Positions 22,182 to 41,872 of a stretch of DNA of 64,000 nucleotides are shown here, piece after piece. Position numbers and translations under genes: made by a program. The notes beneath the pieces are model-generated. The model did not search any database. It worked only from the letters and a program-made list of their open reading frames with translations, and was not told where the DNA came from. The DNA lies in NCBI GenBank assembly GCA_003235475.1, contig QJWC01000031.1, positions 1,042 to 65,041 on the forward strand, written 5' to 3'. Position 1 is the first letter of the stretch; each line of letters opens with the position of its first letter. This DNA is from Acidimicrobiia bacterium (lineage in GTDB: Bacteria; Actinomycetota; Acidimicrobiia; Spongiisociales; UBA5794).

Positions 22182-22248
22182 CACGCGAGGGTATCGGCGA
22201 TGACGGGTTCCGACTCCCCGGACACGTCTGAATCGGTACGCTTCACCC

Positions 22249-22659: not shown

Positions 22660-22668
22660 CTGGGTCGG

Positions 22669-23514: not shown

Positions 23515-23607
23515 GGGGCCTCCCTGATCGAGGGATCGTAGCGACCGTCCCTGCGACCGGCCGAATGGACCGCCGTCTACGCTGGGCCGCCCGACGAAAG
23601 GCGCACC

Positions 23608-24027: not shown

Positions 24028-24031
24028 CGTC

Positions 24032-25365: not shown

Positions 25366-25451
25366 GCTCGTGCACTCCTTGTTCGGTCAATGTGTCACAC
25401 TATACGATCTGACACGGGTGTGCAGCCATACTGAACAACGCGAGAGGGCGC

Positions 25452-26660
25452 ATGGGCCTCGACCACGACATCGGCATCGTCGGAGCGGGCCTCATCGGGC
25501 TCGCAACGGCCCGAGCGCTGGTCGAGAGCCTTCCCGGACGGTCCATCGTGGTGATGGACAAGGCCGATTCCGTCGCAACACACCAGAGCGCCCACAACAG
25601 CGGGGTCATCCACTCCGGCCTCTACTACCGGCCGGGAACACTCAAGGCTGACCTGTGCGCGTCGGGGCGCACGCTCATGTACGACTTCTGCGAGGAGCGC
25701 GGGATCCCCCACCGTCGCACCGGAAAGCTGGTCATCGCATCGAACGAGCGTGAGATTCCCGCTCTCGACGAGCTCGCACGCAGGGCTACAGCGAACGGAC
25801 TCACCGGGATCGAGCGACTCGGACCTCGAGGCATCACCGAGTACGAGCCGGAGGCCGTGGGACTCGCTGCACTCCACGTGCCTGACGCCGGTGTCGTCGA
25901 TTACCCAACCGTCGCCTCGCACATTGCACTCGAGCTCGAGGCCAGCGGCGTCTCAATCCTTCTCGATGCCGGTGTCACCGACATTCGACACGCTACTGAT
26001 GGCGTATCGGTGCTGGCTGGAGAAAACGCCCTGAAAGTCGCTGTTCTGGTCAATTGTGCCGGGCTCCATTCCGACCGCATTGCATTGCTCTCCGGCCTCG
26101 AACCCGCCGTGCGGATCGTGCCGTTTCGCGGCGAGTACTACCGGCTGAGCGACCAGGCAGAACGCCTTGTGCAGGGCCTTGTCTATCCGGTGCCCGATCC
26201 GAGGTTCCCGTTCCTCGGCGTGCACTTCACCCGTCGTATCGACGGCGCGGTGGAGGTCGGCCCGAACGCTGTGCTCGCCCTCGGTAGGGAGAACTACCGC
26301 GGGACGCCAGTCGATTGGGGCGACGTCCGGGACACCTTCGCATATCGAGGATTTCGGCGCCTCGCCACGGCCCACCTGGCGTCCGGCGTCAAGGAACTCG
26401 TCAACTCGCGGTCACGGCGCATGTACGCGCGGCTCGCCAGGAATCTCGTGCCCGCCGTGCGGACCAAGGATCTCCTCCCCGGCGGGTCCGGCGTGCGAGC
26501 ACAGGCAGTGACCCGCGATGGCAAGCTCGTCGACGACTTCGTCATCCAGAAGACCGACGCGACCATCCAGGTCCTCAACGCACCGTCGCCGGGTGCCACT
26601 GCGAGCCTCGCGATCGGGAGGCACATCGCGGCGCAGGTCGAAACGATCCTCCGCCAGTAA
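25452..26660 (+). CDS. lhgO: L-2-hydroxyglutarate oxidase-like FAD-dependent oxidoreductase
   Basis: IGIVGAGLIGLATA FAD motif and HQSAHNSGVIHSGLYYRPGTLKA, which I associate with LhgO/YgaF-type enzymes; 402 aa. Confidence 0.7.
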   Translation: MGLDHDIGIVGAGLIGLATARALVESLPGRSIVVMDKADSVATHQSAHNSGVIHSGLYYRPGTLKADLCASGRTLMYDFCEERGIPHRRTGKLVIASNEREIPALDELARRATANGLTGIERLGPRGITEYEPEAVGLAALHVPDAGVVDYPTVASHIALELEASGVSILLDAGVTDIRHATDGVSVLAGENALKVAVLVNCAGLHSDRIALLSGLEPAVRIVPFRGEYYRLSDQAERLVQGLVYPVPDPRFPFLGVHFTRRIDGAVEVGPNAVLALGRENYRGTPVDWGDVRDTFAYRGFRRLATAHLASGVKELVNSRSRRMYARLARNLVPAVRTKDLLPGGSGVRAQAVTRDGKLVDDFVIQKTDATIQVLNAPSPGATASLAIGRHIAAQVETILRQ

Positions 26661-26692
26661 TCCTCTCACGAATTGTGTAGTGTCACTGATCA

Positions 26693-27583
26693 GTGACGGG
26701 TCAAAACACTTCAGTCGCAGTGATCGGTGCTGGCCGCATGGGCTCTGCAATGGTGCGGACGCTCCGTCGATGCGGGTTCCCCGTGATCGTGTGGAACCGG
26801 AGCTCGGACCGGGCAGACGCGGTCGCCTCCGCAACGGGCGCATCGGCCGCCTCGGCGATGGCGGACGCAGTAGAAGGCGCAACCGTCGTGATCACCAGCC
26901 TTGCCGACGATCGGGCGGTTGCCGATGTCTACCTCGGCGACAATGGGCTAGCTGCCGCCGTTGGCCCCGATCACGTCGTCATCGAAACGAGCACGGTGGA
27001 GCCTGCCACGCAACAGACGGTGGGCGCCGCGGTCGAAGCGTCTGGCGCAGCATTCCTCGATGCCCCCGTATCCGGAAGCGTTTCAACGGTCGAATCCGGG
27101 ACGCTGACCATCATGGTGGGTGGGGACGAGCAGACGATCGAACGGGTTCGGCCCGTGCTCGACTGCCTCGCGTCACGCGTGATCCACGTCGGAGGCCGGG
27201 GGAAGGGTGCCGCCACGAAGCTGGCCGTGAACGGCCTCGTCCACGGTCTCAACATCGCCCTCGCCGAGTCCCTCGTGCTCGCTGAACGCGCTGGTGTCGA
27301 TCGGTCGACCGCGTACGAGGTCTTCGCCTCGGGGGCCGGTGGCGCACCGTTCGTTCTGTACAAGCGAGGTGCGTACGAGCATCCGGAAGAGACCCCCGTG
27401 GCTTTCAGCCTCGACCTCGTCGCAAAGGACCTCGTCCTCATCACCCGTCTCGGTGAGGAAGTTGGGGCGCCCATGAAGCAAGCTCAAGCCAGCCTTTCGA
27501 TCGTGAACGAAGCGATCGATGCTGGCCTCGGCGACCAGGACATGAGCGCCGTCGCTGTGCACATGCGAAAGGAAGGCAGCTGA
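26693..27583 (+). CDS. NAD(P)-dependent beta-hydroxyacid dehydrogenase (3-hydroxyisobutyrate / tartronate-semialdehyde reductase family)
   Basis: VAVIGAGRMGSAM, DAPVSGS, GKGAATKLAVN (catalytic Lys region). Confidence 0.8.
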   Translation: MTGQNTSVAVIGAGRMGSAMVRTLRRCGFPVIVWNRSSDRADAVASATGASAASAMADAVEGATVVITSLADDRAVADVYLGDNGLAAAVGPDHVVIETSTVEPATQQTVGAAVEASGAAFLDAPVSGSVSTVESGTLTIMVGGDEQTIERVRPVLDCLASRVIHVGGRGKGAATKLAVNGLVHGLNIALAESLVLAERAGVDRSTAYEVFASGAGGAPFVLYKRGAYEHPEETPVAFSLDLVAKDLVLITRLGEEVGAPMKQAQASLSIVNEAIDAGLGDQDMSAVAVHMRKEGS

Positions 27584-28479
27584 TGGCGCACATCGTCAAA
27601 CCGAAGGCCCAGCTTGCCTTCACCGTGCCAACTGAGTTCCACGGTCGTTCGACGGGCTACACGCTCGACCGGATCGTCAACGAGGAGGACGGCGCGGTTC
27701 AGATGGGATTCTGCATCGCCCACCTCGAGCCAGGCGGCTTCGTCGACACGCACGTCCACTCCTATGAGGAGTCGATCTACGTGATGGAGGGAACGCTGAC
27801 GCTCGACACGCCCGAGGAGAGCGTGCTCCTGGTCGAAGGGGACTACGCCCTGATCCCTGTCGGCATGACCCACGCCCTCCGCAACACCTCCGGAGCCATC
27901 GTCGAGTTCGCCGAGATGAAGGCCCCGCTCCCGAGGGCCCGGTTCGGCTATGACACACAGTTTCCTCCCGCGATGACGGTCGGCGCTGCCGCACCGATCG
28001 ACGTACGAGACCCCAGGAACCGCTACTTCGGACACATCGACGCCGCATCGATGGATCCCACCCTCCAGACACAGGACCGGCTCGCGGTGAGCGCGAGCAT
28101 GCGGACGGCCCTCCTCGTCTACAGCGGTATCACCGTGAAGATGATGGTCGACTCCGACCTCGGCGCCGACCTCTCGACGATGTTCATGGTCCAGTACGAA
28201 CAGGGCGGGTACGCCGGCGCCCACGACCATCCCCTCGAAGAGACCTACCTCATCCTCGACGGGCAGGTCGAGGCGAAGTTCGACGGAGAGAGCTTCGTCC
28301 TCGGCCCTGGGGACACGGCATGGGCAGGCGTCGGGTGCGTCCACGAGTTCCGCAACGTCGGCGACGGGTTCGTTCGTTGGCTCGAAACGCAGGCACCCGC
28401 ACCCCCGCCCCGGCATTCGTACCGATTCGCCCGTGACTGGGCCTACCTCGAAAACGCCCTGGCAGAACAACAGCAGTGA
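27583..28479 (+). CDS. Bicupin protein
   Basis: Two cupin modules: GGFVDTHVHSYEESIYVMEGTL...GDYALIPVGMTHALRN and GGYAGAHDHPLEETYLILDGQV...GDTAWAGVGCVHEFRN. The ATG shares its A with the preceding TGA. Confidence 0.75.
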   Translation: MAHIVKPKAQLAFTVPTEFHGRSTGYTLDRIVNEEDGAVQMGFCIAHLEPGGFVDTHVHSYEESIYVMEGTLTLDTPEESVLLVEGDYALIPVGMTHALRNTSGAIVEFAEMKAPLPRARFGYDTQFPPAMTVGAAAPIDVRDPRNRYFGHIDAASMDPTLQTQDRLAVSASMRTALLVYSGITVKMMVDSDLGADLSTMFMVQYEQGGYAGAHDHPLEETYLILDGQVEAKFDGESFVLGPGDTAWAGVGCVHEFRNVGDGFVRWLETQAPAPPPRHSYRFARDWAYLENALAEQQQ

Positions 28480-28501
28480 GAGAACCGACAAGGAGCACCC
28501 C

Positions 28502-29755
28502 ATGGCCGACTTTCCCGTAGCGACAACTCCCAGTCCAGGCGTGATGGGCGTCGATTGGGAAAACCGTGTCGACTTCGAACGCCTCCGCCAGTACCGAATC
28601 GCACGTGTCCGTCAGATGCTCGACGAACACGACCTCGGCGCGGTCCTTCTGTTCGAGACGTCCAACATCCGATACGCGACCGCGACCCAGATCGGGTACT
28701 GGGCGTTCAACAAGGGTGAGCGGTGGGCGCTGGTCACTCGCGAGGGTCGCCCGAAGGTGTGGGACTTCGGTTCAGCGGCCAAGGCGCACCGTCTCCAACT
28801 CCCCCACATGTACGACGCGGAGAACTCCGTCGGCGGCAACACCGGGCTCCAGGGCGCCATCGGCCCTGAGACAGGGCTTCACGCGCGGGCGGTGCGCGAG
28901 ATCAAGGGAGCCCTCGAGGACGCGGGGGTCGCCGACCAGAAATTGGGCGTCGACCTTGCGGAAACCGCAGTCTTCCTCGCCCTGCAGGGTGCGGGCCTCA
29001 ACGTCGTCGACGGCCAGCAGGCGATGATGCGGGCGAGAGAGATCAAGAACCCGGACGAGATCACGCTCCTCACGCAGGCCTGCGCCATGGTCGACGGCGT
29101 GTACCAGCACATCTTCGAGGCGCTGAAGCCCGGCATCCGGGAATCCGATGTCGTCGGCATGGCCCACGCTCGCCTCTTCGAGATGGGCTCGGAGTTCGTC
29201 GAGGCGATCAACTCGATCGCAGGTGAGCGGTGCAGCCCCCACCCGCATGTCTTCAGCGATCGCCTCATCCGGCCGGGCGACCAGGCGTACTTCGACATCA
29301 TCCACGTCTTCAACGGGTATCGAACCTGTTACTACCGGACATTCGCGGTCGGCCGTGCATCGCAGGCACACCACGATGCGTTCAAGAAGTCGAGGGAGTG
29401 GATGGACGCGGCGATCGATCTCGTCAAACCGGGAACCACGACTGACCAGATCGCGCTCGCATGGCCGAAGGCTGAGGAATTCGGCTTCGAGGACGAGATG
29501 GATGCGTTCGGGCTCCAGTTCGGCCACGGCGTGGGCGTCGGCCTGCACGAGCGGCCCATCATCAGCAGGCTGAACTCGCTGGACAACCCGGTGGAGATCG
29601 AGGAGGGCATGGTCTTCGCCCTCGAAACGTATGCGCCTGCGTCCGATGGGCGTTCGGCGGCGCGGATCGAGGAGGAAGTCGTCGTCACCGCCGACGGCTG
29701 CAAGGTGATCACCCTGTTCCCATGTGAGGAGTTGATGGTCGCGAATGCCTACTGA
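28502..29755 (+). CDS. M24-family (creatinase/prolidase fold) hydrolase with creatinase-like N-domain
   Basis: ATG at 28502 after AAGGAG. N-domain: LGAVLLFETSNIRYATA. Pita-bread domain: AYFDIIHVFNGYRTCYYRTF, GHGVGVGLHERP, VFALETY, ARIEEEVVVT. Confidence 0.8.
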   Translation: MADFPVATTPSPGVMGVDWENRVDFERLRQYRIARVRQMLDEHDLGAVLLFETSNIRYATATQIGYWAFNKGERWALVTREGRPKVWDFGSAAKAHRLQLPHMYDAENSVGGNTGLQGAIGPETGLHARAVREIKGALEDAGVADQKLGVDLAETAVFLALQGAGLNVVDGQQAMMRAREIKNPDEITLLTQACAMVDGVYQHIFEALKPGIRESDVVGMAHARLFEMGSEFVEAINSIAGERCSPHPHVFSDRLIRPGDQAYFDIIHVFNGYRTCYYRTFAVGRASQAHHDAFKKSREWMDAAIDLVKPGTTTDQIALAWPKAEEFGFEDEMDAFGLQFGHGVGVGLHERPIISRLNSLDNPVEIEEGMVFALETYAPASDGRSAARIEEEVVVTADGCKVITLFPCEELMVANAY

Positions 29756-30806
29756 TCCCGCGTACGACTACGCGCTGCGCCCGCCGCGGCTTCCGGATCC
29801 CGAGGACCGGTCCCTCGACGACGCGCCGATCGATCAGGAGACGCGCCTCGCGCTGTACCGCAAACTCCAGGAGCTGCGCCAGTGGAGCAAGCGTGCCCAC
29901 GACTTGTTCCTCCAGAACCTCGTGAAGGGTACGACCCACCTCTCGTTGGGCATGGAGGCGATCGCCACGGGATTCGGCATGGCCCTGAAACCGGGCGACT
30001 ACACGTTCGCCACGTACCGCGGTCACGCCCATTCGCTCGCGAGGGGCATGGATCCCGGAAAAGCCCTCGCGGAGCTTCTCGGCCGGGAGAACGGCGTGCT
30101 CGGCGGCAAGGGCGGTTCGATGCACCTGACCGACGTCGAGAAGGGGATGATGGGCTCGTACGCCATCATCGGCGCGCACCTGTGCATCGCAAACGGCGCC
30201 GCATGGTCGGCAAAGATGAGGGGCACGGACCAGGTTGCTGTCGCGTTCTTCGGCGACGGAACCACCAACATCGGAGCGTTCCATGAAGCCCTCAACATGG
30301 CGGTCATCTGGAAGCTGCCGGTCGTGTTCGTGTGCGAGAACAACCTCTACATGGAGTACACGCCGATCGATGCGATCACTGCGGTCCCAAATCCCGCAGC
30401 GGACCGTGCTGGTGCGTACGGCCTGGATCCGATCATCATCGACGGGAATGACCCGGATGCCGTGTACCTCGCCGCCGTCGACGCGCTCGAGCGTGCCAGG
30501 CGGGGCGACGGCCCTTCGCTCATCGAGGCCGTCACCTACAGAACCGGGGGCCACTCGAGGGCAGACCCGGCCAAGTACCGCCCCGAGGCGGAGGTCGAGG
30601 CGTGGAAGGACCGCGACCCCGTTCCCGTGTACCACCAGCGTCTCCTCCGGATCGGTGTTCCCGAGGCTGAGCTCGGTGACATCACCCGTGAGGTGGCCGC
30701 GACGATCGACGCGGCAACGGAATTCGCAAAGGCTGGCGCGCATCCGGGCGAGGAGACGTTGATGACCGAGGTCTGGGCTGACGGAGGTTCGGCATGGCGG
30801 AACTGA
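29745..30806 (+). CDS. Thiamine-diphosphate-dependent 2-oxoacid/acetoin dehydrogenase E1 component, alpha subunit
   Basis: YRGHAHSLARG, and the ThDP motif FFGDGTTNIGAFHEALNMA...VCENNLY. 11-nt overlap with the upstream gene. Confidence 0.88.
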   Translation: MPTDPAYDYALRPPRLPDPEDRSLDDAPIDQETRLALYRKLQELRQWSKRAHDLFLQNLVKGTTHLSLGMEAIATGFGMALKPGDYTFATYRGHAHSLARGMDPGKALAELLGRENGVLGGKGGSMHLTDVEKGMMGSYAIIGAHLCIANGAAWSAKMRGTDQVAVAFFGDGTTNIGAFHEALNMAVIWKLPVVFVCENNLYMEYTPIDAITAVPNPAADRAGAYGLDPIIIDGNDPDAVYLAAVDALERARRGDGPSLIEAVTYRTGGHSRADPAKYRPEAEVEAWKDRDPVPVYHQRLLRIGVPEAELGDITREVAATIDAATEFAKAGAHPGEETLMTEVWADGGSAWRN

Positions 30807-31783
30807 GCTACCGCGATGCGGTCGCCTACGGGATCGCCCAGGAGATGCGCCGCGACCCAGCCCTCGTGATGCTCGGTGAGGACATCGCGGCGGCTGGCGG
30901 CGTTTTCAAGACGACCGTCGGCCTTGTCGAGGAGTTCGGCCCTGATCGCGTCCGCGACACGCCGATCTCAGAGCAGGCGATCCTCGGGGCCGCGATGGGC
31001 GCCGCGATGACGGGCATACCAGTGATCGCCGAGATCATGTTCTCCGACTTCCTCGCCGTGTGCTGGGACATGATCGCCAACGAGATCGCAAAGAGCCGGT
31101 ACATGACCAACGGGCAGGTGAGCTTCCCCCTCGTGATCCGCACGGCGAACGGCGGGGGTGCCCGCTTCGGAGCCCAGCACTCGCAGAGCGTGGAGAACTG
31201 GGCAATGATGATCCCCGGACTCAAGGTGGTCGCCCCATCGACGCCCGAGGACGTCGTCGGCCTCATGGCTGCGTCGATACGCGATCCCGACCCCGTCATC
31301 TTCTTCGAGCACAAGTCGCTCATGGCTGGCAAGGCCGAGGTCCCCGACGGTGAGATCGTCGACGAACTCGGTACAGCCCGAGTCGTCCGAGAGGGTTCCG
31401 ACGTCACCATCGCCGCGTTGGCGCTGATGGTGCCCCGCGCACTCGAAGCAGCTGACCGCCTCGCGGAGAACGGCATCTCAGCCGAGGTCATCGACGTGCG
31501 GTCGCTGGTTCCCCTCGACACGGCGACCCTGCTTTCATCCACGGCGAAGACCGGGAGGTTCTTCACGGTCGAGGAGAACCCGCGCTTGTGCGGATGGGGT
31601 GCAGAGCTCGTGTCGATCATCAGCGAAGAGGCGTTCTGGAACCTCGATGGCCCATGTGTGCGCATCACGACGCCACACATCCCGCTCCCATCCGCGGCCT
31701 CCCTCGAGGACCTCGCCCTTCCGTCCGTCGATCGCATCGTCGAGACCGTGACACGGTCCGTCGATGGTGGAGGAAGCGCATGA
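30794..31783 (+). CDS. 2-oxoacid/acetoin dehydrogenase E1 component, beta subunit
   Basis: LSYRDAVAYGIAQEMRRDPALVMLGEDI...DTPISEQAILGAAMGAAMTG...FPLVIRTANGGGARFGAQHSQS. 13-nt overlap with the alpha gene. Confidence 0.9.
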   Translation: MAELSYRDAVAYGIAQEMRRDPALVMLGEDIAAAGGVFKTTVGLVEEFGPDRVRDTPISEQAILGAAMGAAMTGIPVIAEIMFSDFLAVCWDMIANEIAKSRYMTNGQVSFPLVIRTANGGGARFGAQHSQSVENWAMMIPGLKVVAPSTPEDVVGLMAASIRDPDPVIFFEHKSLMAGKAEVPDGEIVDELGTARVVREGSDVTIAALALMVPRALEAADRLAENGISAEVIDVRSLVPLDTATLLSSTAKTGRFFTVEENPRLCGWGAELVSIISEEAFWNLDGPCVRITTPHIPLPSAASLEDLALPSVDRIVETVTRSVDGGGSA

Positions 31784-33039
31784 CCGACTTCCTGCTGAAG
31801 GGCGCGACCGTTCTCACTCTCGGCGCCCGCACTCAGAACCACGTCGAGGCCGATGTGCTCGTCGAGCGCGGCTCCGTGTCCGAGGTTGGATCCGGGCTCC
31901 GATCCCGCGCCGCCGAGGCCATCGATGCTTCGAACACGATCGTGATGCCCGGTTTCGTCGACAGCCACCGGCGCTGCTGGACCTCCCTCTTCAAGAACGA
32001 GGGGAGTGTGCCGACCGCTGCCACTCCCGGTCCGCAGGACGTCTACGCAGGGACGCTCGCAGCACTCCTCGGCGCTGCCGAGGCGGGAGTCACGACCGTC
32101 GCCGACTGGTACGACGGGCCCCCCGCGCCCGGACACGTCGAGGGCGTGCTCCGCGCGCATGCCGAGGCGGGCATCCGTACCGTCCTGGTGCTCGCGCCCG
32201 CGGAACATGCCGAGTCCGTTTGGCGGAGGGCCGTGCAGCGCCATGGCGTCGCGCCAACGGAGCTCACGACACTCGCCGCGGGCGTCCACTCGGCCGCCGC
32301 GTTGTCTGACGCACGGCGCGCGGCCAACGAGCTCGGCCTCCGTCTCCATGTGAAGGGGACGGCCCGCGATGCCGGAATGTTCGCTGCGGCGAAGGGGGAC
32401 CTCGATCCGGGCGTCACGGTGATCCACGCAGCCGGCCTGGCGGACGATGATCTCGACGCGATCGCGGACTCAGGGGCAGGGGTCGCGCTCACGCCGGTCG
32501 CCGACATGACGACCGGGCCCGGCTCGCCGCCGATGCAGACCTTCCTCGACCGGGACATCCGCCCCGGGCTCGGCGTCGGCCATGAGCTCCAGGGACCCGG
32601 CGACATACTCGCGCAGATCAGGGCTGCGATATCGATACAGCACGCCACCTACTTCGACCTCAAGCTGGCTGGAAAGGGAGGGCTCCCGAACCTTCTCACC
32701 ACGCGCCACGTGATCCGCTACGGAACGAGCGACGGCGCAAACGCGCTCGGACTCGGTGGCACCACAGGGTCCATCGAGGCCGGGAAGCAAGCAGACCTGA
32801 TCATGCTCCGGACCGATACACCGAACCTCTATCCCGTCAACGACCCGATCGGTGCCGTCGTGTGGGGGGTTGACACGTCGAACCTCGACCTGGTTCTCGT
32901 CGGCGGCCGACCAGTAGTGAGGGCCGGTGTGACGCAAGCGGATGTCGCAGAAGTCAGGTCCCTGGTCGCGGAGGCTCGTGCTCGCCTCGGCCTGCCCTCG
33001 CCGATCCTTGCTGGCGCCGCGCCGGGAGGTGCATTGTGA
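31780..33039 (+). CDS. Amidohydrolase-superfamily protein (cytosine-deaminase/TRZ-ATZ-like), apparently catalytically degenerate paralog
   Basis: ATG at 31780 in an ATGA overlap with the E1-beta stop. Clear paralog of the C-terminal domain of the 37113 gene (VMPGFVDSHRRCW versus VMPGFVDTHRHIW). The HxH reads HRR and the strand-8 Asp position reads GVGHE versus SVDVE. Confidence 0.8.
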   Translation: MTDFLLKGATVLTLGARTQNHVEADVLVERGSVSEVGSGLRSRAAEAIDASNTIVMPGFVDSHRRCWTSLFKNEGSVPTAATPGPQDVYAGTLAALLGAAEAGVTTVADWYDGPPAPGHVEGVLRAHAEAGIRTVLVLAPAEHAESVWRRAVQRHGVAPTELTTLAAGVHSAAALSDARRAANELGLRLHVKGTARDAGMFAAAKGDLDPGVTVIHAAGLADDDLDAIADSGAGVALTPVADMTTGPGSPPMQTFLDRDIRPGLGVGHELQGPGDILAQIRAAISIQHATYFDLKLAGKGGLPNLLTTRHVIRYGTSDGANALGLGGTTGSIEAGKQADLIMLRTDTPNLYPVNDPIGAVVWGVDTSNLDLVLVGGRPVVRAGVTQADVAEVRSLVAEARARLGLPSPILAGAAPGGAL

Positions 33040-34085
33040 CAACCCCGCGCCAACAGCCATCGTCGGCCCTCACATCGCTCGTCGTTGGCTCCAGGTTCGT
33101 TCCGGTCTACATCGCACTGGCGCTGCTCGTCGTCGTGGCGTGGATCTGGGCCCCTCAGGCGCTGTCGAGCATCTCGCTGAGAGCCATCGCCCCGTACGGA
33201 GCCGTGCTCGGCATCGCAGCACTCGGCCAGATGATCGTCATCATGATCGGCGGTATCGACCTGAGCGTTCCCGGCACGATGAGCCTCGCCGCGGTGATCA
33301 TGATCGGCGTCGGCCACGGCGCCGACGAGAACATCGGTAAGGCGATGGTGATCGCATTCGCGGCGGCTGCGGTGGTCGGCCTCGCGAACGGCTTGCTCAT
33401 CGGCGGATTGAAGCTCAACCCCCTCATCGTCACCCTCGCAGCCGGATCCATCGTCACCGGAGTCGTGTTCCGGTACGCGGAGAAGATCACCGTCCAGAAC
33501 CCCGTTCCGGAGGGGTTGACCGATTGGGTCGCCAAGAGGTACTTCGGATTAGGTGCGGTCTTCTGGATCGGGATCGCCGTCACGGTGATCGTGAGCGTGA
33601 TTCTCCGGTACACAGTTGCAGGTCGCCGATTCCAGGCAATCGGCGCGAATCCGGTGGCTGCGAACGTCGTCGGCGTCAGGGTGAACTGGTACCAGATCAT
33701 GGCGTACGTGTTCGCGGCGCTCCTATACGCAGCCGCGGCGATCGCCCTCGCAGGCCTCCTGAGGCGACCGGGCGCCTCGGTCGGCAACGAGTACCTGCTC
33801 GCGCCCATCGCGGCCGTCGTGATCGGAGGCGCATCCCTCACGGGCGGACTGGCAAGCCCGTTCTCGACCTTCACGGCGGGCCTCTTCCTCATCGGCCTTC
33901 GCCAGATGATGCTCACGATGGGCCTGCCGACGGCGCTCCAGAACGTGGCGTTCGGGCTCGTCATCATCGCCGGGATGCTCGTGTCCGGCGACCGGATCAC
34001 CAAGGGCGTGGAGCAGCTCCTCCGGGAGCGAAGACGTCCAACCCGAACTGAGGTGGAAGAGATATTGACCCCGATGAACCAATGA
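33036..34085 (+). CDS. ABC transporter permease, CUT2 (ribose/sugar-like) type
   Basis: GTG in a GTGA overlap. 349 aa, polytopic, with the GQMIVIMIGGIDLSVPG motif typical of RbsC/branched-type permeases. Confidence 0.85.
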   Translation: MTTPRQQPSSALTSLVVGSRFVPVYIALALLVVVAWIWAPQALSSISLRAIAPYGAVLGIAALGQMIVIMIGGIDLSVPGTMSLAAVIMIGVGHGADENIGKAMVIAFAAAAVVGLANGLLIGGLKLNPLIVTLAAGSIVTGVVFRYAEKITVQNPVPEGLTDWVAKRYFGLGAVFWIGIAVTVIVSVILRYTVAGRRFQAIGANPVAANVVGVRVNWYQIMAYVFAALLYAAAAIALAGLLRRPGASVGNEYLLAPIAAVVIGGASLTGGLASPFSTFTAGLFLIGLRQMMLTMGLPTALQNVAFGLVIIAGMLVSGDRITKGVEQLLRERRRPTRTEVEEILTPMNQ

Positions 34086-34162
34086 GGCGAGGACAACGCG
34101 CCTCTCAGACTCCGGCACCCCCACCGGGAGCCGACAAGCGAAGGAAGCGGATGGGAGCACCC

Positions 34163-35518
34163 ATGAAACAGATACGACTACTTGCCGTGTTTGCCGTGTT
34201 TGCGCTGATCGTCGCCGCGTGCGGCAGCAGCGACGGCGGAGACACGACAACAACGAGTGGAGACACCACTACGACAACGGCGGCGACGACAACGACCGCG
34301 GGCCCCGGCGGCGATGAGAACCCGCTCGCCATGTATGGCGAGCGTATCGACGCAGACCCGGCGCTCGTCGAGAAGGCACTGGGTCCGGTCGAGCCCTCTG
34401 ACGACGCAAGCTGGAACATCATCCTTGCTGCGATCGCCAGGGCCGATCAGAACCCGGACCAGGCGACGATCGACAAGGCGCTCGAGTGCTTCAACAACCA
34501 GGAGTGCGACACCGGCTCTGGCGGGGCGGGCGTCATGGGGTATGCCGATGGCGGTGGTGATCAGGTCAACGTCTGGCGTGCGGTCAGCCACATGGAGGCG
34601 ATCCTCCAGGCGCTGACGTACTCGGAGATCGGCAAGATCATCTCGACGGCGGCGAACTTCGACCCGGATCCAAGCGTTGCCGCGAACGACATTCGGTTCC
34701 TCATCAACAGCGGCGTCGACTTCATCGTCGGCTACCCGGACGCTGGCATCGCGATCGCCGATGCGATCAAGGAAGCGGACGACGCGGGCATCCCGTACGT
34801 CTCGTTCTCGGCCGGCTATGTCGGTCTGCCTGATCAGGACGGCGCACTCGTCCCCGGAGAGGACTACCTCACCGTGGTCGGTGAGAACCTGTGTGCGCTC
34901 GGCGAGAGCTTCGCTCAGGTCCTGAACGATGGCGTTGGTACCGGTGAGGTCGCGGTTCTCGGTGGCTCATCGGGCAACGCACTGTCACTTGGCTGGCAGC
35001 GGTGCATCTTCCCGGCATTGAGCGAGGGCATCACAGCAGTGAATGCCCCGCCGAACGCCGACACCACCGTGGGCGACACCTTCTGGTATGACCCGCTCAT
35101 TCCTGACGTGTTCCGGGGTCTCTTGACCACGAATCCGGGCATCAAGGGCTGGGCATACGAATACTCGGATGGAATGAACACCGGGCTGAGCGTGTACGAG
35201 GAACTCGGCATCCCAGTCGCGAATCTCACGGTTGCCTTGCGTACCGACGAGCAGACACTGTTCTGTGACTGGGTGGATCGCAACGAACCGACGTACAACA
35301 TCTTCTACTCGGCTGGTGGCAACTTCCAGTCGCGTGTCGCGGTAACAGCGGCGATGTTGGGACTTCAGGAACCGAGCGTGGTGCCGGCCGAGGTCGTCGT
35401 GCCACACGTGATGCGACCGGTGACGGCTGCAGATTGCAATCCGGACCGCGTGAACCCGTACGTCTCGGGAACGTCGCTGGTGCCGGATGCGGTGCTTGCG
35501 CTGATGTTCGCCGGCTGA
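34163..35518 (+). CDS. Substrate-binding lipoprotein (periplasmic-binding-protein type I fold), unusually long
   Basis: MKQIRLLAVFAVFALIVAAC lipobox, then a Thr-rich linker (DTTTTSGDTTTTTAATTTTAG). An alternative ATG lies at 34151. Confidence 0.75.
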   Translation: MKQIRLLAVFAVFALIVAACGSSDGGDTTTTSGDTTTTTAATTTTAGPGGDENPLAMYGERIDADPALVEKALGPVEPSDDASWNIILAAIARADQNPDQATIDKALECFNNQECDTGSGGAGVMGYADGGGDQVNVWRAVSHMEAILQALTYSEIGKIISTAANFDPDPSVAANDIRFLINSGVDFIVGYPDAGIAIADAIKEADDAGIPYVSFSAGYVGLPDQDGALVPGEDYLTVVGENLCALGESFAQVLNDGVGTGEVAVLGGSSGNALSLGWQRCIFPALSEGITAVNAPPNADTTVGDTFWYDPLIPDVFRGLLTTNPGIKGWAYEYSDGMNTGLSVYEELGIPVANLTVALRTDEQTLFCDWVDRNEPTYNIFYSAGGNFQSRVAVTAAMLGLQEPSVVPAEVVVPHVMRPVTAADCNPDRVNPYVSGTSLVPDAVLALMFAG

Positions 35519-35547
35519 TCCGACAAGGGCATCCCGAGGAAGCGTCG

Positions 35548-37116
35548 ATGAAAGAGGAATTGGTTCTCGAGCTGAGCGGCGTATCACGCCAGTTCGGTGC
35601 GGTGCGGGCGTTGACCAACGTCAGCTTCGAATGCCGAGCTGGCGAGATCCACGCTCTCGTCGGCGAGAACGGCTCCGGCAAGTCGACGCTCCTCGGGATC
35701 GCCAGTGGCTTCGTGGACCCCGATCTGGGCACCGTCCGGATCGGGGGCCACAAGCTCCGTACGGACTCCCCTGCCCTGGCGCGCAAGCTCGGCCTTGCGA
35801 TGGCGTATCAGGAGACATCCCTCGTCCTGGCGGAGCCCGTGAAGAACAACCTGTTCCTCGCAACTCCGCCCGAGATGCGCCCGCCCTACTGGCGCCGCAA
35901 GAAGTGGGCACGGAGGCAACTCGCGGAGTTCGACCTCGACCTCGAGCTGTTTCCCGACGCCCCGGCCGGGTTCTTGACGTTCGCAGACCGCCAGCTCTTC
36001 GAGGTGGCCAAGGCGCTGGCGACCAACCCGAAGGTCCTGCTCCTCGACGAACCGACGACGGCGCTCGGGCCCGACGAGGTGGAGGCCCTCCACCGCACGA
36101 TCAAGCAATGTGCCACGCAGGGCATCGGAGTCGTCTACGTGAGCCACCGCCTGCCCGAGGTCCTCGAGATCGCCGATCGCATCACCGTATTGCGCGATGG
36201 CGAGTATCAGGGCACCTTCGATGCCCACAAGACGAGCGAGGAACAGCTCGTCGAACTGATCGTCGGGCGGCCGTTCGATTCTGCATTCCCACATCGAGCC
36301 GCCACCACAACCGAGCCGGAGGACGTCCTGGTCGTAGAGGGTCTCCAGGGTGAGGCGTTCGGGCCCGTTTCGTTCACCTTGCTGTCGGGGGAGGTGGTCG
36401 GCCTTGCTGGCGCTGAGGGCAACGGACAAGCAGCGTTGCTCGACACACTCGCGGGCCGTACACCGCCGAAGGCTGGCCGCGTCGAATGTGTCGGCAAGGA
36501 TCTCGCCCTCATTTCCACGCACGAGGCAGTCGCCGCAGGCATCCAGCTCCTCCCTGGCGATCGGAAACACCAAGCCCTCATGGGGGTCCTCGGCGTGCGT
36601 GTGAATGCCACGATCCAATCACTCAACAAGTTCAGCGTCTCGGGGATCCTGCGGCGACGGTCCGAGCGAAAGGGCGTCCGATCCCTCGTTGAACAGCTCG
36701 AGATCCGCACCCCCTCGCTCGAGCAACCCGTTGAGTTCCTGTCCGGCGGGAACGCCCAGAAGGTCTCCGTATCGCGCACGTTCCTCAGGGAACCTGCGGT
36801 GATCCTTGCTTTCGAACCAACGCAAGGAGTTGACGTCGGCTCACGTTTCGACATCTACAAGGCACTCCGAACCCGCATCGACGAGGGTGCCGCCATGCTC
36901 GTGAAGTCGAGCGATCCGATCGAGCTCGCTGGCCTATGCGACAGGGTGCTCGTGATGTCCCGTGGCCAGATCGTGGAGGAAATCCCCGGGGAGGAGCTGA
37001 CCGAGCTCCGAATCGTGGAATCGATCGTCCGCGGCCCTGGGATGTCAAAGGCGGCCCGGTCGCCCCTCGGCGTGGCGATGCCGACAGCCTCGTCGGCGGA
37101 AGGGACCGAGTCGTGA
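35548..37116 (+). CDS. Sugar-type ABC transporter ATP-binding protein with two nucleotide-binding domains
   Basis: ATG at 35548 after GAGGAAG. GENGSGKSTL, LLLDEPTTAL; second NBD LSGGNAQKV, LAFEPTQGVDV. Confidence 0.9.
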   Translation: MKEELVLELSGVSRQFGAVRALTNVSFECRAGEIHALVGENGSGKSTLLGIASGFVDPDLGTVRIGGHKLRTDSPALARKLGLAMAYQETSLVLAEPVKNNLFLATPPEMRPPYWRRKKWARRQLAEFDLDLELFPDAPAGFLTFADRQLFEVAKALATNPKVLLLDEPTTALGPDEVEALHRTIKQCATQGIGVVYVSHRLPEVLEIADRITVLRDGEYQGTFDAHKTSEEQLVELIVGRPFDSAFPHRAATTTEPEDVLVVEGLQGEAFGPVSFTLLSGEVVGLAGAEGNGQAALLDTLAGRTPPKAGRVECVGKDLALISTHEAVAAGIQLLPGDRKHQALMGVLGVRVNATIQSLNKFSVSGILRRRSERKGVRSLVEQLEIRTPSLEQPVEFLSGGNAQKVSVSRTFLREPAVILAFEPTQGVDVGSRFDIYKALRTRIDEGAAMLVKSSDPIELAGLCDRVLVMSRGQIVEEIPGEELTELRIVESIVRGPGMSKAARSPLGVAMPTASSAEGTES

Positions 37117-39566
37117 CGGCCCGGACCGATGCCGCTCGCATCCTGGCGCGCAAGATCATGCGCAATGCGCGTGACAAGAACAAATGGCGCAAGGTCGTCA
37201 AGTTCAGGCTGTGGATGCCCATTGTCCTCCAGGTCCTTCTGGTTGCGATCGTGCTCGCCTACACCGAGTACCGCTTCCCGGGTTTCATCAGCGCCAACAC
37301 CGAGCAGACGCTTCTGCTGGCACTCCCCCTGATCATCGTCACCGCAGCCCAGACGAACGCCATCCTCGTCGGGTACCTCGACCTGTCCGTTGGGGCCGTG
37401 GTCAGCCTGAGCGTTGTCACTGCGTCCTTCCTCATCGGATCGGACGCCTCAGGATTCGACATCGCGATCGGCATCGTGGCGATCATCGGCGCGGGGCTCG
37501 CGGTCGGTGCCGTGAATGCCGCGCTCATCCGCGGCGTGAAGATCCCCTCGATCGTCGCAACCCTCGCAACGCTCAGCATCGTGAGCGGGATTGCCGCAAC
37601 GATGCGACCCACCGCCCAGGGCGTCATCAACAAGGAGCTCGTGAGCTTCCTGCAGTCCAGCATCGGTCCGATCCCTGTCTTCTTCATCGTCGCACTGGTC
37701 GGGGCAGGCCTCGCGGACGCATGGCTGCACGGCACGGGGAGCGGACTCGAACTGCGTGCGACCGGTTTTGACGAACGGTCAGCGAAGCGGGGAGGCGTAC
37801 GGACGAATTGGGTCCGCGTGAGGGCGCTCCTGCTCTCGGCGGGCCTTGCCGCCGTTGGGGCCTTCTTCGTCATCGCGGCACAGTCATCTGTTGGAAACGC
37901 CCAGATCGGCTCCCCGTACGCGCTGCGGTCGATCACCGCTGCGGTCCTCGGTGGCGCGGCGATCGCGGGTGGACGGGCGACCTTCCTCGGTGGCTCTGTT
38001 GCCTCCGTCCTCCTCGCTCTGATTCTCACCGTCGTCCCCTACCTCGACTGGACCAAGGAAGACGGGGCGATGATCATCGGCATCCTCGTCATCCTTGGCA
38101 TCATCATCTTCCAGCTCGGCGACCTCAAAGAGCTGGCCAAGCGCAACTACAAGCGGGTTCGGCGCCTGATCGTTGGAAGTCGAGTAGAGAAAGCCGCTGA
38201 GATTCCGGACCTGTATGAGCCCGGCATCGACTTCAGCGTTGCGCCGTCCGGCCTGACCCTGATACGAGGCGGAACGGTGCTGAGCGTGGATCCGGCCGTC
38301 GGTGACCACGCCGTCGCCGATGTCCTCATCGACGGGGACACGATCCGCGAGGTGCGCCCGAACATCGAGGCAAACGGCGCACGGGTGATCGACGCCCATG
38401 GCATGATCGTCATGCCCGGGTTCGTCGACACCCACCGGCACATCTGGGAAGGCCTGCTCCGCAACATCGGGACCGATGTCCCTCTCGAAGGGCGCACGAG
38501 CTACATCTCGCACGTGTTGCACAAGCTCGCGCCGGCCTACAGCCCGGAGGATGCGTACGTCGGAAACCTCCTGTCGTGCGTGGGGGCCCTCGACGCGGGT
38601 GTCACGACATTGCTCGACTGGTCCCACATCCAGGGAAGCCCGGCGCACACCGATGCGGTCATCCACGCACTCCAGGATTCCGGCATGAGGGCCGTGTTCG
38701 CCTACGGATTCCCCTGGTGGGGCAAGTGGGAGGAGCGCCAACCGAGTTGGTTCGTCCGCGCCGCGACCGAGTACTTCTCGACCAAGGACCAGATGCTCAC
38801 TCTCGCCCTTGCTGCACCCGGCCCCGAGTTCACTGACTTCGAGGTGACGAGGGACCATTGGAAGCTGGCACGCGAGGCCGATGCACGGATCTCGACGCAT
38901 GTCGGCGTCGGCTCGTACGGACTCGACGCGAAGGTCCAGGAGTTCGGTGAGGCGGGCCTGCTCGGTGACGACACGACCTACATCCACTGCACGACGCTCA
39001 ACGACACGGAGATCCAGATGATCGTCGACTCCGGCGGAACCGTGTCCTTGGCCTCGCCGGTCGAGATGATGATGGGTCACGGCATGCCACCCATCCAGAA
39101 GTTCCTCGATCGGGGGCTGAGCCCCAGTTTGTCCGTCGACGTCGAGACGAACGTTCCGAACGACATGTTCAACCAGATGCGGTCTGCCATGGCGCTGCAG
39201 CACACGCTGGCGGAGCAGGGCGGAAGGGACAAGGTCAGCGCCTCGGATGTGATCGCATGGGCGACGATCGTCGGGGCGAAGGCGAACGGCCTCGACCACA
39301 AGACGGGATCGCTGACGCCCGGAAAGCAGGCGGACCTCGTCATGCTGCGGACCGACCGGATGAACGTGACCCCGCTCAACGATCCTGCGACCGCCGTCGT
39401 CCTCGGAATGGACACGGGGAACGTCGACACCGTGATGGTGGCAGGGCGCATCATGAAGAGCGGCGGCAGAATCACCGGCCTGCGGTGGTCCGCCCTGATG
39501 GAAGCCGCAGCCAATGCTCGCGATCGGGTCCTTGCGAGGTCCGGCTTCAAGCCCCCCAGGATCTAG
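37113..39566 (+). CDS. CUT2-type ABC permease fused in frame to a C-terminal amidohydrolase (cytosine-deaminase/TRZ-ATZ-like) domain
   Basis: GTG at 37113 in a GTGA overlap with the ATPase stop (alternative ATG at 37158). The permease part runs to about 38121 (AQTNAILVGYLDLSVGAV...GAMIIGILVILGIIIFQLG). A charged linker of about 44 aa follows (DLKELAKRNYKRVRRLIVGSRVEKAAEIPDLYEPG...). The amidohydrolase starts at about 38253 (LTLIRGGTVLSVDP...MPGFVDTHRHIW...ISTHVGVG...YIHCTTL...SLSVDVETN). There is no stop codon and no ATG/GTG with an RBS at the junction. Confidence 0.75.
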   Translation: MTARTDAARILARKIMRNARDKNKWRKVVKFRLWMPIVLQVLLVAIVLAYTEYRFPGFISANTEQTLLLALPLIIVTAAQTNAILVGYLDLSVGAVVSLSVVTASFLIGSDASGFDIAIGIVAIIGAGLAVGAVNAALIRGVKIPSIVATLATLSIVSGIAATMRPTAQGVINKELVSFLQSSIGPIPVFFIVALVGAGLADAWLHGTGSGLELRATGFDERSAKRGGVRTNWVRVRALLLSAGLAAVGAFFVIAAQSSVGNAQIGSPYALRSITAAVLGGAAIAGGRATFLGGSVASVLLALILTVVPYLDWTKEDGAMIIGILVILGIIIFQLGDLKELAKRNYKRVRRLIVGSRVEKAAEIPDLYEPGIDFSVAPSGLTLIRGGTVLSVDPAVGDHAVADVLIDGDTIREVRPNIEANGARVIDAHGMIVMPGFVDTHRHIWEGLLRNIGTDVPLEGRTSYISHVLHKLAPAYSPEDAYVGNLLSCVGALDAGVTTLLDWSHIQGSPAHTDAVIHALQDSGMRAVFAYGFPWWGKWEERQPSWFVRAATEYFSTKDQMLTLALAAPGPEFTDFEVTRDHWKLAREADARISTHVGVGSYGLDAKVQEFGEAGLLGDDTTYIHCTTLNDTEIQMIVDSGGTVSLASPVEMMMGHGMPPIQKFLDRGLSPSLSVDVETNVPNDMFNQMRSAMALQHTLAEQGGRDKVSASDVIAWATIVGAKANGLDHKTGSLTPGKQADLVMLRTDRMNVTPLNDPATAVVLGMDTGNVDTVMVAGRIMKSGGRITGLRWSALMEAAANARDRVLARSGFKPPRI

Positions 39567-39622
39567 GGCCACCAGCCGCTGAGTCGTTTGGTACCTTTGT
39601 TTCCAGGGAAGGGAGAGGAAGC

Positions 39623-41728: not shown

Positions 41729-41782
41729 CAGCCAGACATCTGTGGGGTCTGCCTCTGAACCCCTACAATCCCGCCTACGTCA

Positions 41783-41855: not shown

Positions 41856-41872
41856 CGCATCCAAGGTCGAGT

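Follow-up and report, generated by a model that had tools for sequence, protein, structure and literature searches.

We analyzed a 64,000-nt stretch of DNA from an Acidimicrobiia bacterium (contig QJWC01000031.1, positions 1,042 to 65,041; hereafter, the window), whose nearest relatives are metagenome-assembled genomes (MAGs) of Acidimicrobiia and whose G+C content is 62–68% throughout. Our subject is the gene cluster at positions 25452–39566 of the window, where eleven genes, all on the plus strand and head to tail, encode a set of enzymes and the components of an ATP-binding cassette (ABC) importer. The original prediction, made from the sequence alone, had described these genes as a translationally coupled, self-contained operon of twelve genes for the uptake and degradation of a compound. 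Domains were assigned with Pfam and NCBIfam, and bit scores set against a cut-off are those of NCBIfam models and their own cut-offs. The genes of the cluster, the two genes divergent from them and two palindromic sites are listed below.

24032–24670, minus strand: XRE-family helix-turn-helix and cupin regulator of PuuR-like architecture (HTH_3 and Cupin_2)
24667–25365, minus strand: short-chain dehydrogenase/reductase (SDR), divergent from the cluster (adh_short_C2)
25419–25437, no strand: palindrome site 1, TGTGCAGCCATACTGAACA, in the divergent region, 14 nt before the LhgO start; exact match to the pattern given below, near-palindrome on both strands
25452–26660, plus strand: LhgO, L-2-hydroxyglutarate oxidase/dehydrogenase (DAO; NF008726, 518 bits, cut-off 299)
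26674–26692, no strand: palindrome site 2, TGTGTAGTGTCACTGATCA, in the gap between LhgO and the next gene, abutting the GTG start of the latter; exact pattern match
26693–27583, plus strand: beta-hydroxyacid dehydrogenase (HADH) of the 3-hydroxyisobutyrate / tartronate-semialdehyde reductase family (NAD_binding_2 and NAD_binding_11)
27583–28479, plus strand: bicupin (two Cupin_2 domains)
28502–29755, plus strand: M24 hydrolase with a creatinase/prolidase N-domain (Creatinase_N and Peptidase_M24)
29745–30806, plus strand: thiamine diphosphate (ThDP)-dependent E1 alpha of the pyruvate dehydrogenase (PDH)/acetoin type (E1_dh)
30794–31783, plus strand: E1 beta (Transket_pyr and Transketolase_C)
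31780–33039, plus strand: free PRK08204-like amidohydrolase, AH7 (Amidohydro_1)
33036–34085, plus strand: CUT2-type ABC permease 1 (BPD_transp_2)
34163–35518, plus strand: substrate-binding lipoprotein, the receptor (lipobox; Peripla_BP_4, 46 bits)
35548–37116, plus strand: ABC ATPase of CUT2 type with two nucleotide-binding domains (two ABC_tran domains)
37113–39566, plus strand: permease 2 fused to a C-terminal amidohydrolase (BPD_transp_2 and Amidohydro_1; hydrolase domain at about 38220–39566)

Eleven genes were thus counted rather than twelve. The domain order agrees with that originally given, as does the divergent pair, both genes of which lie on the minus strand at 24032–25365 and overlap by 4 nt; the regulator gene is downstream of the SDR gene and is read as co-transcribed with it. 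The spacings at the ten junctions are, in gene order, +32, –1 (TGATG), +22, –11, –13, –4 (ATGA), –4 (GTGA), +77, +29 and –4 nt (GTGA). Small gaps and overlaps had been expected and are present, the spacings of 11 and 13 nt being overlaps, and translational coupling holds for the 6 of 10 junctions that overlap (by 1–13 nt) but not for the four with gaps. The gene calls of an independent pipeline reproduce the same junctions on the contig of a relative whose M24 protein is 90% identical. Only three products passed curated NCBIfam cut-offs, namely LhgO, E1 beta and the fused amidohydrolase domain.

A search with the M24 protein returned at least 8,000 candidates, all at E ≤ 1e-20, and the best 120 protein clusters, of metagenomic origin, are 88–93% identical. 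We then scanned one genome per species with a seed alignment of six M24 sequences and obtained 80 loci with M24 proteins 64–91% identical to that of the window; all are in MAGs, mostly of Acidimicrobiia and also of Nitriliruptorales, Dehalococcoidia, Nanopelagicales, Dormiibacterota and others. Genes were called by a codon-usage model with start trimming, which reproduced the genes of the window, and were clustered. The counts below are over 81 loci, many of them on truncated contigs.

M24: 81/81
E1 alpha: 64/81
E1 beta: 55/81
HADH: 55/81
bicupin: 32/81
PRK08204-like amidohydrolase: 32/81
CUT2 ATPase: 32/81
XRE-cupin regulator: 28/81, always adjoining one of the modules described below
SDR: 24/81
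permease: 22/81
receptor: 22/81
LhgO: 16/81
succinate-semialdehyde dehydrogenase (SSADH)-like aldehyde dehydrogenase: 16/81, not in the window

By mean identity to the window, M24 ranks highest (83.5%) and AH7 lowest (52%), with E1 beta at 79%. The exact gene order of the window recurs in seven loci and the same genes are rearranged in many more; the arrangement is not due to chance. The block of AH7, permease 1, receptor, ATPase and fusion lies upstream of, downstream of or inverted relative to the enzyme genes in loci L034, L035, L041, L042, L045, L047, L048, L051 and L055, which indicates two separable modules. The catabolic core is near-constant and consists of M24 beside stand-alone E1 alpha and beta, usually with HADH; in this window it is joined by the bicupin, the SDR and LhgO. 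The uptake module consists of the CUT2-type importer with its divergent receptor, the fusion of permease 2 with an amidohydrolase, and permease 1 coupled to AH7. Every long contig examined that had been found with the fusion protein as seed carries M24 and E1 alpha/beta alongside. No counterparts of the genes directly next to the cluster occur in the related loci. The gene content upholds the view of an uptake-plus-degradation cluster with its own regulator, and sequence comparison suggests a real import and breakdown locus kept in hundreds of uncultured actinobacteria of soil, sediment and water. A single indivisible operon was not found, as the two blocks are rearranged elsewhere, a palindrome lies inside the string before HADH and LhgO occurs in 16 of the 81 loci only.

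The palindromes, of the form TGTGYAG-N5-CTRNACA, connect the two modules. We scanned all loci for TGTNYAG-N5-CTRNACA (19 bp, at least 10 of 12 positions); of the 85 sites obtained, 46 are located no more than 200 nt upstream of a module's first gene (HADH 20, M24 13, LhgO 8, AH7 5), against an average of 1.7 and at most 4 over ten block shuffles. When the modules lie apart, the same palindrome precedes both, for example in L045, L048 and L065. Since it precedes the first gene of each module at this frequency (46 versus 1.7 expected), the palindrome supports a common control of both modules in one regulon, presumably by the XRE-cupin protein, which scores 64 bits on the PuuR model (cut-off 211). 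In 17 other loci the distance from a site to the called HADH start is at most 45 nt (0–12 nt in 11 of them), and in many loci the site ends 0–3 nt before the HADH start codon; as it contains TAGTGT, it may serve both as an operator and as the –10 element of a leaderless transcript. This conserved promoter- or operator-like site before HADH points to a candidate second regulated start inside the string, directly after LhgO, and the spacing and the overlaps of 4–13 nt favor co-transcription from HADH through the fusion gene. An Rfam scan of 22000–42000 (E ≤ 1) returned no riboswitch and only a tRNA-Lys. The cluster is probably a single regulon of two modules, joined in this genome as one co-directional 14-kb string.

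Two arrangements among the related loci are recorded here as separate observations. In the closest long contig (L001), a formiminotransferase-cyclodeaminase gene (4995–6674) lies directly upstream of the regulator gene and LhgO is missing; this was seen once. L016, L020, L021 and L022 carry a minimal variant without E1, composed of XRE-cupin, SDR, LhgO, (HADH), M24, a protein of metallo-beta-lactamase fold and a 358-aa secreted protein whose sequence alone looks beta-propeller-like, with the same palindrome before LhgO and before M24.

All parts of a CUT2 importer are present, with BPD_transp_2 permeases, an ATPase with tandem nucleotide-binding domains and a receptor of the Peripla_BP_1/4 type, the last by a weak match (46 bits). 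The transporter had been assigned to the sugar (CUT2) type, and this assignment stood for the permeases and the ATPase but not for the binding protein, which is barely recognizable as CUT2. The best models of permease 1 are AraH and LsrC, both below cut-off, and the ATPase reached 350–380 bits on the AraG, XylG and RbsA models, all below cut-off; no substrate-specific CUT2 model of NCBIfam was passed by the permeases, the ATPase or the receptor. The receptor (451 aa) has a signal peptide, the lipobox LIVAAC, a Thr/Gly-rich linker and six invariant Cys residues; it has no NCBIfam match, and its family profile matched PDB sequences at E 2e-5 at best.

The amidohydrolase domain fused to permease 2 belongs to the PRK08204 'hypothetical protein' subfamily (494 bits, cut-off 391), and the fusion is present in 120 of the 120 best homologues. 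The domain is cog0402-like, with AtzA, methylthioadenosine/S-adenosylhomocysteine (MTA/SAH) deaminase and TrzN as its closest structures (E 1e-28 to 1e-20). Its HxH, His, His and Asp metal ligands (in DTHRHIW, THVGVG, YIHCTT and LSVDVET) are invariant in 12 orthologues. Counting Lys and Arg together, the fusion has eleven among its first 30 residues and nine over the 45 residues past its last membrane helix; given this Lys/Arg-rich N-terminus and linker, the positive-inside rule places the enzyme domain probably in the cytoplasm. AH7, whose gene overlaps that of permease 1 by 4 nt and is thereby translationally coupled to it, is 35% identical to the fused domain and falls below the subfamily cut-off (255 bits, cut-off 391). 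It had been called degenerate, correctly for this genome, in which HxH is replaced by HRR and the strand-8 Asp by Gly; both motifs are intact in other genomes, which indicates a variably decaying paralogue.

Further forms of these proteins were noted. A third, well-conserved PRK08204-type paralogue (DxHRHTW, HIAMG, YIHSCY, LSIDVVT) occurs in L038, L039, L042, L046, L061 and L024; except in L024, its place is between the genes of E1 beta and the bicupin, which means that the enzyme module can carry an amidohydrolase copy of its own. In L009, L012 and L013, the permease and the amidohydrolase were called as adjacent open reading frames (about 354–390 aa and 429–522 aa), which may reflect a split gene or a frameshift in the MAG.

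The M24 hydrolase falls below the cut-offs of all specific models tried. Its best NCBIfam model is DddP (118 bits, cut-off 600), and the models of the ectoine hydrolase DoeA (79 bits, cut-off 613; 56 bits, cut-off 575) and of PepQ were likewise missed by far. DddP is also its closest solved relative over the full length (E 1.5e-22 with the single sequence, 6e-51 with a family profile), followed by prolidases, creatinase and DoeA. At the DddP position that reads CDEW in the wild type and CNEW in the PDB variant of the 4rzy/4s01 alignment, M24 has a His; we take the position mutated in that variant to be the catalytic base Asp377 of the Ruegeria enzyme. M24 retains the peptidase-type His-Glu motif (GLHE in the same alignment) and the His, Glu and Glu metal ligands, and the second metal-ligand Asp of DddP is replaced by the nearly invariant Cys276. 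The full set of residues required of DddP, a catalytic Asp and an Asp/Asp/His/Glu/Glu site, is therefore absent from M24 in this alignment. A function as dimethylsulfoniopropionate (DMSP) lyase was rejected because His-Glu replaces the Asp of DddP and Cys replaces one ligand Asp.

The E1 alpha gene overlaps the M24 gene by 11 nt. E1 alpha is closest to human PDH E1 alpha (E 6e-53) and lies below the PDH equivalog cut-off (317 bits, cut-off 394), and E1 beta passes PRK09212 of the PDH subfamily (347 bits, cut-off 321); the two are alpha and beta subunits of the 2-oxoacid/acetoin dehydrogenase type. With the lipoyl protein, E2 core and LpdA (E3) of Phaeobacter as queries, no E2, lipoyl protein or E3 was found within the 64-kb window, nor was an SSADH homologue found there. 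Across the related loci, no lipoyl-protein homologue was detected, E2-core matches were confined to L062, L069 and L072, and a weak LpdA match occurred in L005. E1 may be served by a housekeeping E2 encoded elsewhere in the genome. The module is thus not clearly self-contained, as E1 has no E2/E3 partner within the window, unlike in relatives from Phaeobacter (with E2 and E3) and Streptomyces (with E2).

Of the oxidoreductases, LhgO scores far above its equivalog cut-off over residues 6–393 of 402 and is probably a true L-2-hydroxyglutarate oxidase. It occupies several positions relative to M24 in the 16 loci that contain it and is an accessory, optional gene. HADH, in contrast to LhgO, misses both tartronate semialdehyde reductase models, GlxR and GarR (170 bits, cut-off 397; 164 bits, cut-off 341), the best of which is annotated as 2-hydroxy-3-oxopropionate reductase, and would be placed by its sequence in the wider beta-hydroxyacid dehydrogenase family only. 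The SDR is found in other genomes within a block of bicupin, SDR and HADH.

The bicupin has two intact 3-His/1-Glu metal motifs (H57/H59/E63/H97 and H214/H216/E220/H254), which are invariant or nearly so among 29–30 orthologues. It scored about 40 bits, over 50–70 residues, on models of (S)-ureidoglycine aminohydrolase (cut-offs 200–445). No oxalate decarboxylase model of NCBIfam matched at E ≤ 1e-5, so that the protein was not placed in that family, and its profile matched OxdC at E ~4e-6 in one cupin only. In a Foldseek search with the bicupin model (predicted local distance difference test (pLDDT) score 82), quercetinase YxaG, DUF861/ureidoglycine aminohydrolase, oxalate decarboxylase and gentisate-type dioxygenases were about equal, and the TM-score to ureidoglycine aminohydrolase (about 0.64–0.66) was not above that to quercetinase.

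The catabolic core occurs with other partners. In three loci, HADH, M24 and E1 alpha/beta stand with a Liv/HAAT-type importer and a 532-aa Amidohydro_3 enzyme (300 bits). An SSADH-like aldehyde dehydrogenase follows E1 beta in 16 loci and lies inside the E1-E2-E3 operon in Phaeobacter. Plasmids of Phaeobacter and Marinovum carry E1 alpha and beta followed by a lipoyl protein, an aldehyde dehydrogenase and an E2 core, with LpdA after the E2 core in those of Phaeobacter; the M24 of Tritonibacter plasmids is 60% identical to that of the window. A Streptomyces plasmid carries LacI, a receptor, HADH, M24, SSADH, a VOC protein, a fused E1 alpha-beta, E2, a flavin reductase and a luciferase-like monooxygenase (LLM) family oxygenase. 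L072 and L077 have an extra GntR regulator, a VOC protein, an E2 and an IorB-like molybdenum subunit, and L079 has only molybdenum subunits and an aldehyde dehydrogenase beside M24. On Haloferax volcanii pHV4, genes of hydantoinase A/B, a cupin, an NAD(P) oxidoreductase and an acetolactate synthase (ALS)-like ThDP enzyme surround that of an M24 with 34% identity. The plasmid contexts of Rhodococcus opacus and Paenarthrobacter are rich in mobile elements and uninformative. As a separate observation, the M24 operon of Phaeobacter gallaeciensis pGal_E78 (L082) is headed by a gene at 9341–11032 annotated as 'extracellular solute-binding protein', the N-terminus of which looks winged-helix-like by eye; the product may be a transcription factor with a binding-protein-like sensor.

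From these results we propose that a polar compound of the amide, amidine or lactam type is imported, hydrolyzed stepwise at its C–N bonds and then cleaved by a ThDP-dependent enzyme, a proposal whose chances we judge to be even. The compound, possibly a heterocycle or a ureide, would be captured outside the cell, and upon leaving the transporter it would be hydrolyzed at the cytoplasmic face by the permease-borne amidohydrolase. The bicupin and the SDR would modify the product, and M24 would cut the remaining C–N bond to yield a small 2-oxo or alpha-hydroxy-carbonyl acid, which E1 alpha/beta would decarboxylate or cleave to an aldehyde. HADH, together with the SSADH-like enzyme in other genomes, would interconvert semialdehyde and hydroxy acid, LhgO would convert an L-2-hydroxy-dicarboxylate to 2-oxoglutarate, and the XRE-cupin protein would bind the palindromes and let go when the compound or a product is present.

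The nitrogenous nature of the substrate, which had also been predicted and remains plausible, is favored because two unrelated types of amidohydrolase have been recruited to the same core, because the relatives of the fused domain perform C–N chemistry, because M24 keeps peptidase-type residues and because variants carry neighbors of the N-heterocycle type (flavin reductase, LLM oxygenase, IorB-like and hydantoinase/caprolactamase-type proteins). C–N chemistry by M24 is further indicated by its solved relatives (DddP, prolidase, creatinase and ectoine hydrolase), which act on small zwitterionic acids, and aldehyde formation by E1 is indicated by the SSADH-like dehydrogenase that follows E1 beta in 16 loci and is embedded in the Phaeobacter operon. 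The original prediction found no fit to the characterized routes it named, and this is borne out, since the specific NCBIfam models, namely those of DddP, the deaminases, ectoine hydrolase, tartronate-semialdehyde reductase and ureidoglycine aminohydrolase, were all missed widely; homology to a characterized cluster, which it had set as a refuting check, was found neither in Pfam and NCBIfam nor among PDB sequences or in the literature searched. Ectoine, creatine, DMSP, allantoin, pantothenate, pterins, aminocyclitols and pyridines were considered as substrates and none is claimed.

Several points weigh against this proposal. Its enzymatic steps are all read from family membership, and every specific family model was missed except those of LhgO, E1 beta and PRK08204. 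The fused domain lacks the HxxE glutamate of cog0402 deaminases, having Gly/Val there (HVGV aligns to HIHE of 4f0r and HLAE of 3hpa), and the structure model of the fusion is poor (pLDDT 53, 31 homologues). As E1 alpha/beta have no E2/E3 partner here, E1 might release an aldehyde, hand an acyl group to a housekeeping E2 or form a carboligation product. L044 and L052 have no amidohydrolase and instead carry an ordinary CUT2 importer, two acetoin-reductase-like SDRs and an SSADH-like dehydrogenase, with ThuA in L052 only; plasmids of Phaeobacter and Marinovum, with M24 proteins about 60% identical, share this arrangement, ThuA being absent in Marinovum. These amidohydrolase-free variants fit a nitrogen-free polyol or acyloin equally well. 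As regards the transcription units, a consensus promoter scan of 23900–42000 returned no sites, which in a high-GC actinobacterial host neither supports nor contradicts them, and terminator-like sites in the same interval were fewer than in shuffles and are uninformative.

The amidohydrolase-free variants bring in a rival route whose substrate, a polyol, sugar acid or acyloin, is free of nitrogen. In it, SDRs would turn a vicinal diol into the alpha-hydroxyketone that E1 would cleave, as acetoin dehydrogenase does, into an acyl unit and an aldehyde; the amidohydrolase folds would be lactonases or isomerases and M24 a non-peptidase. The CUT2 type of the permeases and ATPase is consistent with it, as are the LacI and ROK regulators of some variants and the lack of the deaminase glutamate in the fused hydrolase. 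The Phaeobacter and Marinovum clusters fit it as well, with sugar binding proteins of the ordinary kind, SDRs resembling acetoin reductase (256 and 204 bits on TIGR02415), ThuA, and a full E1-E2-E3 with an aldehyde dehydrogenase within the operon (ThuA and LpdA not in Marinovum). However, the closest relatives of the fused domain act on amidines or heteroaromatic rings, where they cleave C–N, C–Cl or C–S bonds, the same core also occurs with a Liv/HAAT importer and an amidohydrolase of another, unrelated type, M24 keeps its peptidase-type catalytic residues, and by Pfam and NCBIfam the operon has no kinase, aldolase or dehydratase typical of sugar routes. We regard this route as rather unlikely.

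A ureide-to-glycerate route built from non-orthologous enzymes also has a low probability in our judgment. Here, an allantoin- or allantoate-like ureide would be taken up and opened by the amidohydrolases, M24 would be a urea-releasing amidinohydrolase, the bicupin would act like ureidoglycine aminohydrolase, E1, in lieu of glyoxylate carboligase, would condense glyoxylate to tartronate semialdehyde, and HADH would reduce the latter to glycerate. In keeping with this, the two best NCBIfam models of HADH are those of tartronate-semialdehyde reductases (170 and 164 bits), the bicupin weakly matches ureidoglycine aminohydrolase models and GlxB/YlbA structures, and the Haloferax relative has an ALS/Gcl-like ThDP enzyme for a neighbor and, besides hydantoinase A/B, a cupin and an NAD(P) oxidoreductase. 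Elsewhere in the window there are a racemase of the hydantoin/allantoin type, two enzymes of the xanthine-dehydrogenase family, an ornithine carbamoyltransferase (OTCase)-like gene and a glycerate kinase. These matches are, however, far under the cut-offs (170 versus 397; 40 versus 200–445), and the bicupin has two full metal sites, whereas ureidoglycine aminohydrolase has one, as in the Arabidopsis structure. The purine-type neighbors are 10–25 kb away, and the genes immediately flanking the cluster lack counterparts in the related loci, the purine-type genes themselves not having been among the queries there. Nor does carboligation agree with the presence of E2/E3 and SSADH-like genes in the versions from Phaeobacter and Streptomyces.

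It is very unlikely that the string consists of a transporter with its own hydrolases and an enzyme operon unrelated to it, placed side by side by chance. The modules are separable and rearranged between genomes, and the M24–E1 alpha/beta core also occurs with other transporters, as this explanation would have it; yet every fusion-seeded context examined has M24 and E1 alpha/beta adjoining, modules that lie apart each have the palindrome in front (for example in L045, L048 and L065), the third amidohydrolase paralogue lies inside the enzyme block in L038, L039, L042, L046 and L061, and the last enzyme gene and the first gene of the transport module overlap by 4 nt in the window. Least credible of all is a lyase system for DMSP or its sulfoxonium analogue DMSOP, in which a DddP-like M24 would release acrylate for conversion to 3-hydroxypropionate and malonate semialdehyde: DddP is the closest full-length solved structure and best NCBIfam model of M24, and a gene of the DMSO/TMAO-reductase family lies 4 kb downstream, but M24 reaches 118 bits where 600 are needed, has His at the DddP Asp position (the catalytic base) and Cys276 for one metal-ligand Asp, most carriers are soil and sediment MAGs, and the amidohydrolases would have no role.

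Returning to the nitrogenous compound, we tentatively suggest, while considering it more doubtful than the pathway itself, that the importer is an import-and-hydrolyze machine, in which the catalytic fused amidohydrolase and its coupled, often inactive paralogue form a heterodimer under the pore and feed an undescribed pathway of M24 and stand-alone E1 for a common environmental nitrogen compound. If so, an ABC importer would perform the hydrolytic equivalent of group translocation, the substrate being converted on release, and the permease-hydrolase fusion would represent an unusual coupling of ABC import to chemistry. Soils, sediments and waters harbor abundant Acidimicrobiia, almost all of them uncultured, and the cluster is among their best-conserved accessory loci; since it is so conserved and widespread, the compound degraded is probably common, and its turnover has been assigned to no gene yet. 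The pair of M24 and E1 alpha/beta, a partnership without a described function, recurs in Actinomycetota, on Roseobacter plasmids and in Chloroflexota and Dormiibacterota MAGs, and cultured, genetically tractable Phaeobacter strains hold a version of the core, which opens the question to experiment.

The remainder of the window contains further genes of note. On the minus strand at 50028–58963 lie a 1176-aa Fe–S flavoprotein with dihydropyrimidine-dehydrogenase domain II (50028–53558), a 340-aa amidohydrolase (53601–54623), an XdhD-like molybdenum enzyme with a 2Fe–2S domain (54620–57223), an OTCase-like gene (57274–58248) and a GntR/UTRA regulator (58262–58963). We take this block to resemble the ygeW–ygfK region of E. 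coli, which is linked to anaerobic purine/urate breakdown. It is followed at 59174–62651 by a second enzyme of the xanthine-dehydrogenase/CO-dehydrogenase family (FAD subunit 59174–59974, 2Fe–2S subunit 59962–60435, molybdenum subunit 60432–62651) and then by a DUF4147/MOFRL glycerate-kinase-type gene on the minus strand (62704–63900). Owing to the blocks at 50028–58963 and 59174–63900, the window is rich in N-heterocycle genes. A major facilitator superfamily transporter and an Asp/Glu/hydantoin racemase lie at 11002–13026, and another ABC system, CUT2-like and with a receptor of the nucleoside type (Bmp/PnrA), at 13999–18768 on the minus strand.

Directly downstream of the cluster, in the region 39623–41856 and 56 nt past the fusion gene, begins the gene of a 701-aa protein with an N-terminal signal or anchor, a C-terminal membrane helix and a HELSH zinc-protease-like motif; neither Pfam nor NCBIfam gave a match to it, and the related loci have no counterpart. 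A tRNA-Lys(TTT) at 41783–41856 comes after it. Next are an FAD-binding protein not assigned to a family (41873–43273, minus strand) and, divergent from it, an S-/N-oxide reductase of the BisC/TorA family (43434–45707), with 900 bits just below the subfamily cut-off of 1018. Proteins with adenylate/guanylate-cyclase domains at 22669–23988 and, on the minus strand and with additional TPR repeats, at 47988–49976 flank the region.

No characterized pathway matching the cluster was found in Pfam, NCBIfam, PDB sequences or the literature searched, and no description of the cluster was found in that literature, where the sole lead was a protein named SktH. In the skatole skt cluster of Rhodococcus ruber, SktH is an unassigned protein of the 'Xaa-Pro peptidase family' beside caprolactamase-like genes, an SDR and a flavin reductase (bioRxiv 10.1101/2024.12.29.630347). 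The two clusters share the logic of hydrolase, SDR and semialdehyde dehydrogenase, SktH being likened to M24 by annotation only. The ring-opening routes of N-heterocycles and lactams differ in that the cluster described here has no oxygenase except possibly the bicupin. The same hydrolase, SDR and semialdehyde dehydrogenase logic is found in the pyridine pyr cluster of Arthrobacter.

The allantoin–glyoxylate pathway has like parts, namely an amidohydrolase, a bicupin, a ThDP enzyme and a beta-hydroxyacid dehydrogenase, but no part here reaches the cut-offs, the ThDP enzyme is of another superfamily branch and the bicupin has two metal sites. The csiD-lhgO-gabDTP operon of E. coli, which leads from glutarate to 2-oxoglutarate, shares with our cluster a true LhgO orthologue and, with related loci, GabD-like aldehyde dehydrogenases, whereas CsiD and GabT are lacking here. 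The members of the DddP/M24B group (prolidase, creatinase, DoeA) have the same two-domain creatinase/prolidase fold as M24; the known enzymes have no ThDP E1 partner, whereas the M24 described here is as a rule paired with one. Acetoin and PDH E1 systems have the same heterotetramer-type alpha and beta subunits, with PDH E1 the closest, but the Acidimicrobiia loci and the window are without E2, lipoyl protein and E3, and an aldehyde dehydrogenase is embedded in the relatives. For the pairing of M24 with a stand-alone E1, no precedent was found in the literature searched.

CUT2 importers of ribose, arabinose, xylose and autoinducer-2 likewise combine a double ATPase with a pair of BPD_transp_2 permeases and a receptor lipoprotein built on a Peripla_BP_4 core; here, by contrast, the receptor is barely alignable, permease 2 bears a 450-aa enzyme domain and permease 1 is coupled to a paralogue of that domain. 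To our knowledge, no importer with a permease-hydrolase fusion and a coupled paralogue, whether or not a pseudo-enzyme, has been described, and the literature searched yielded none either. The fused domain shares the TIM-barrel metal-hydrolase ligand set of cog0402 amidohydrolases (AtzA, TrzN, MTA/SAH deaminase and 8-oxoguanine deaminase) but not the HxxE glutamate that the deaminases use, and differs from them in being membrane-anchored. As a whole, the cluster is an ordinary kind of object, a regulated cluster for ABC uptake and catabolism, in a variant not described before.

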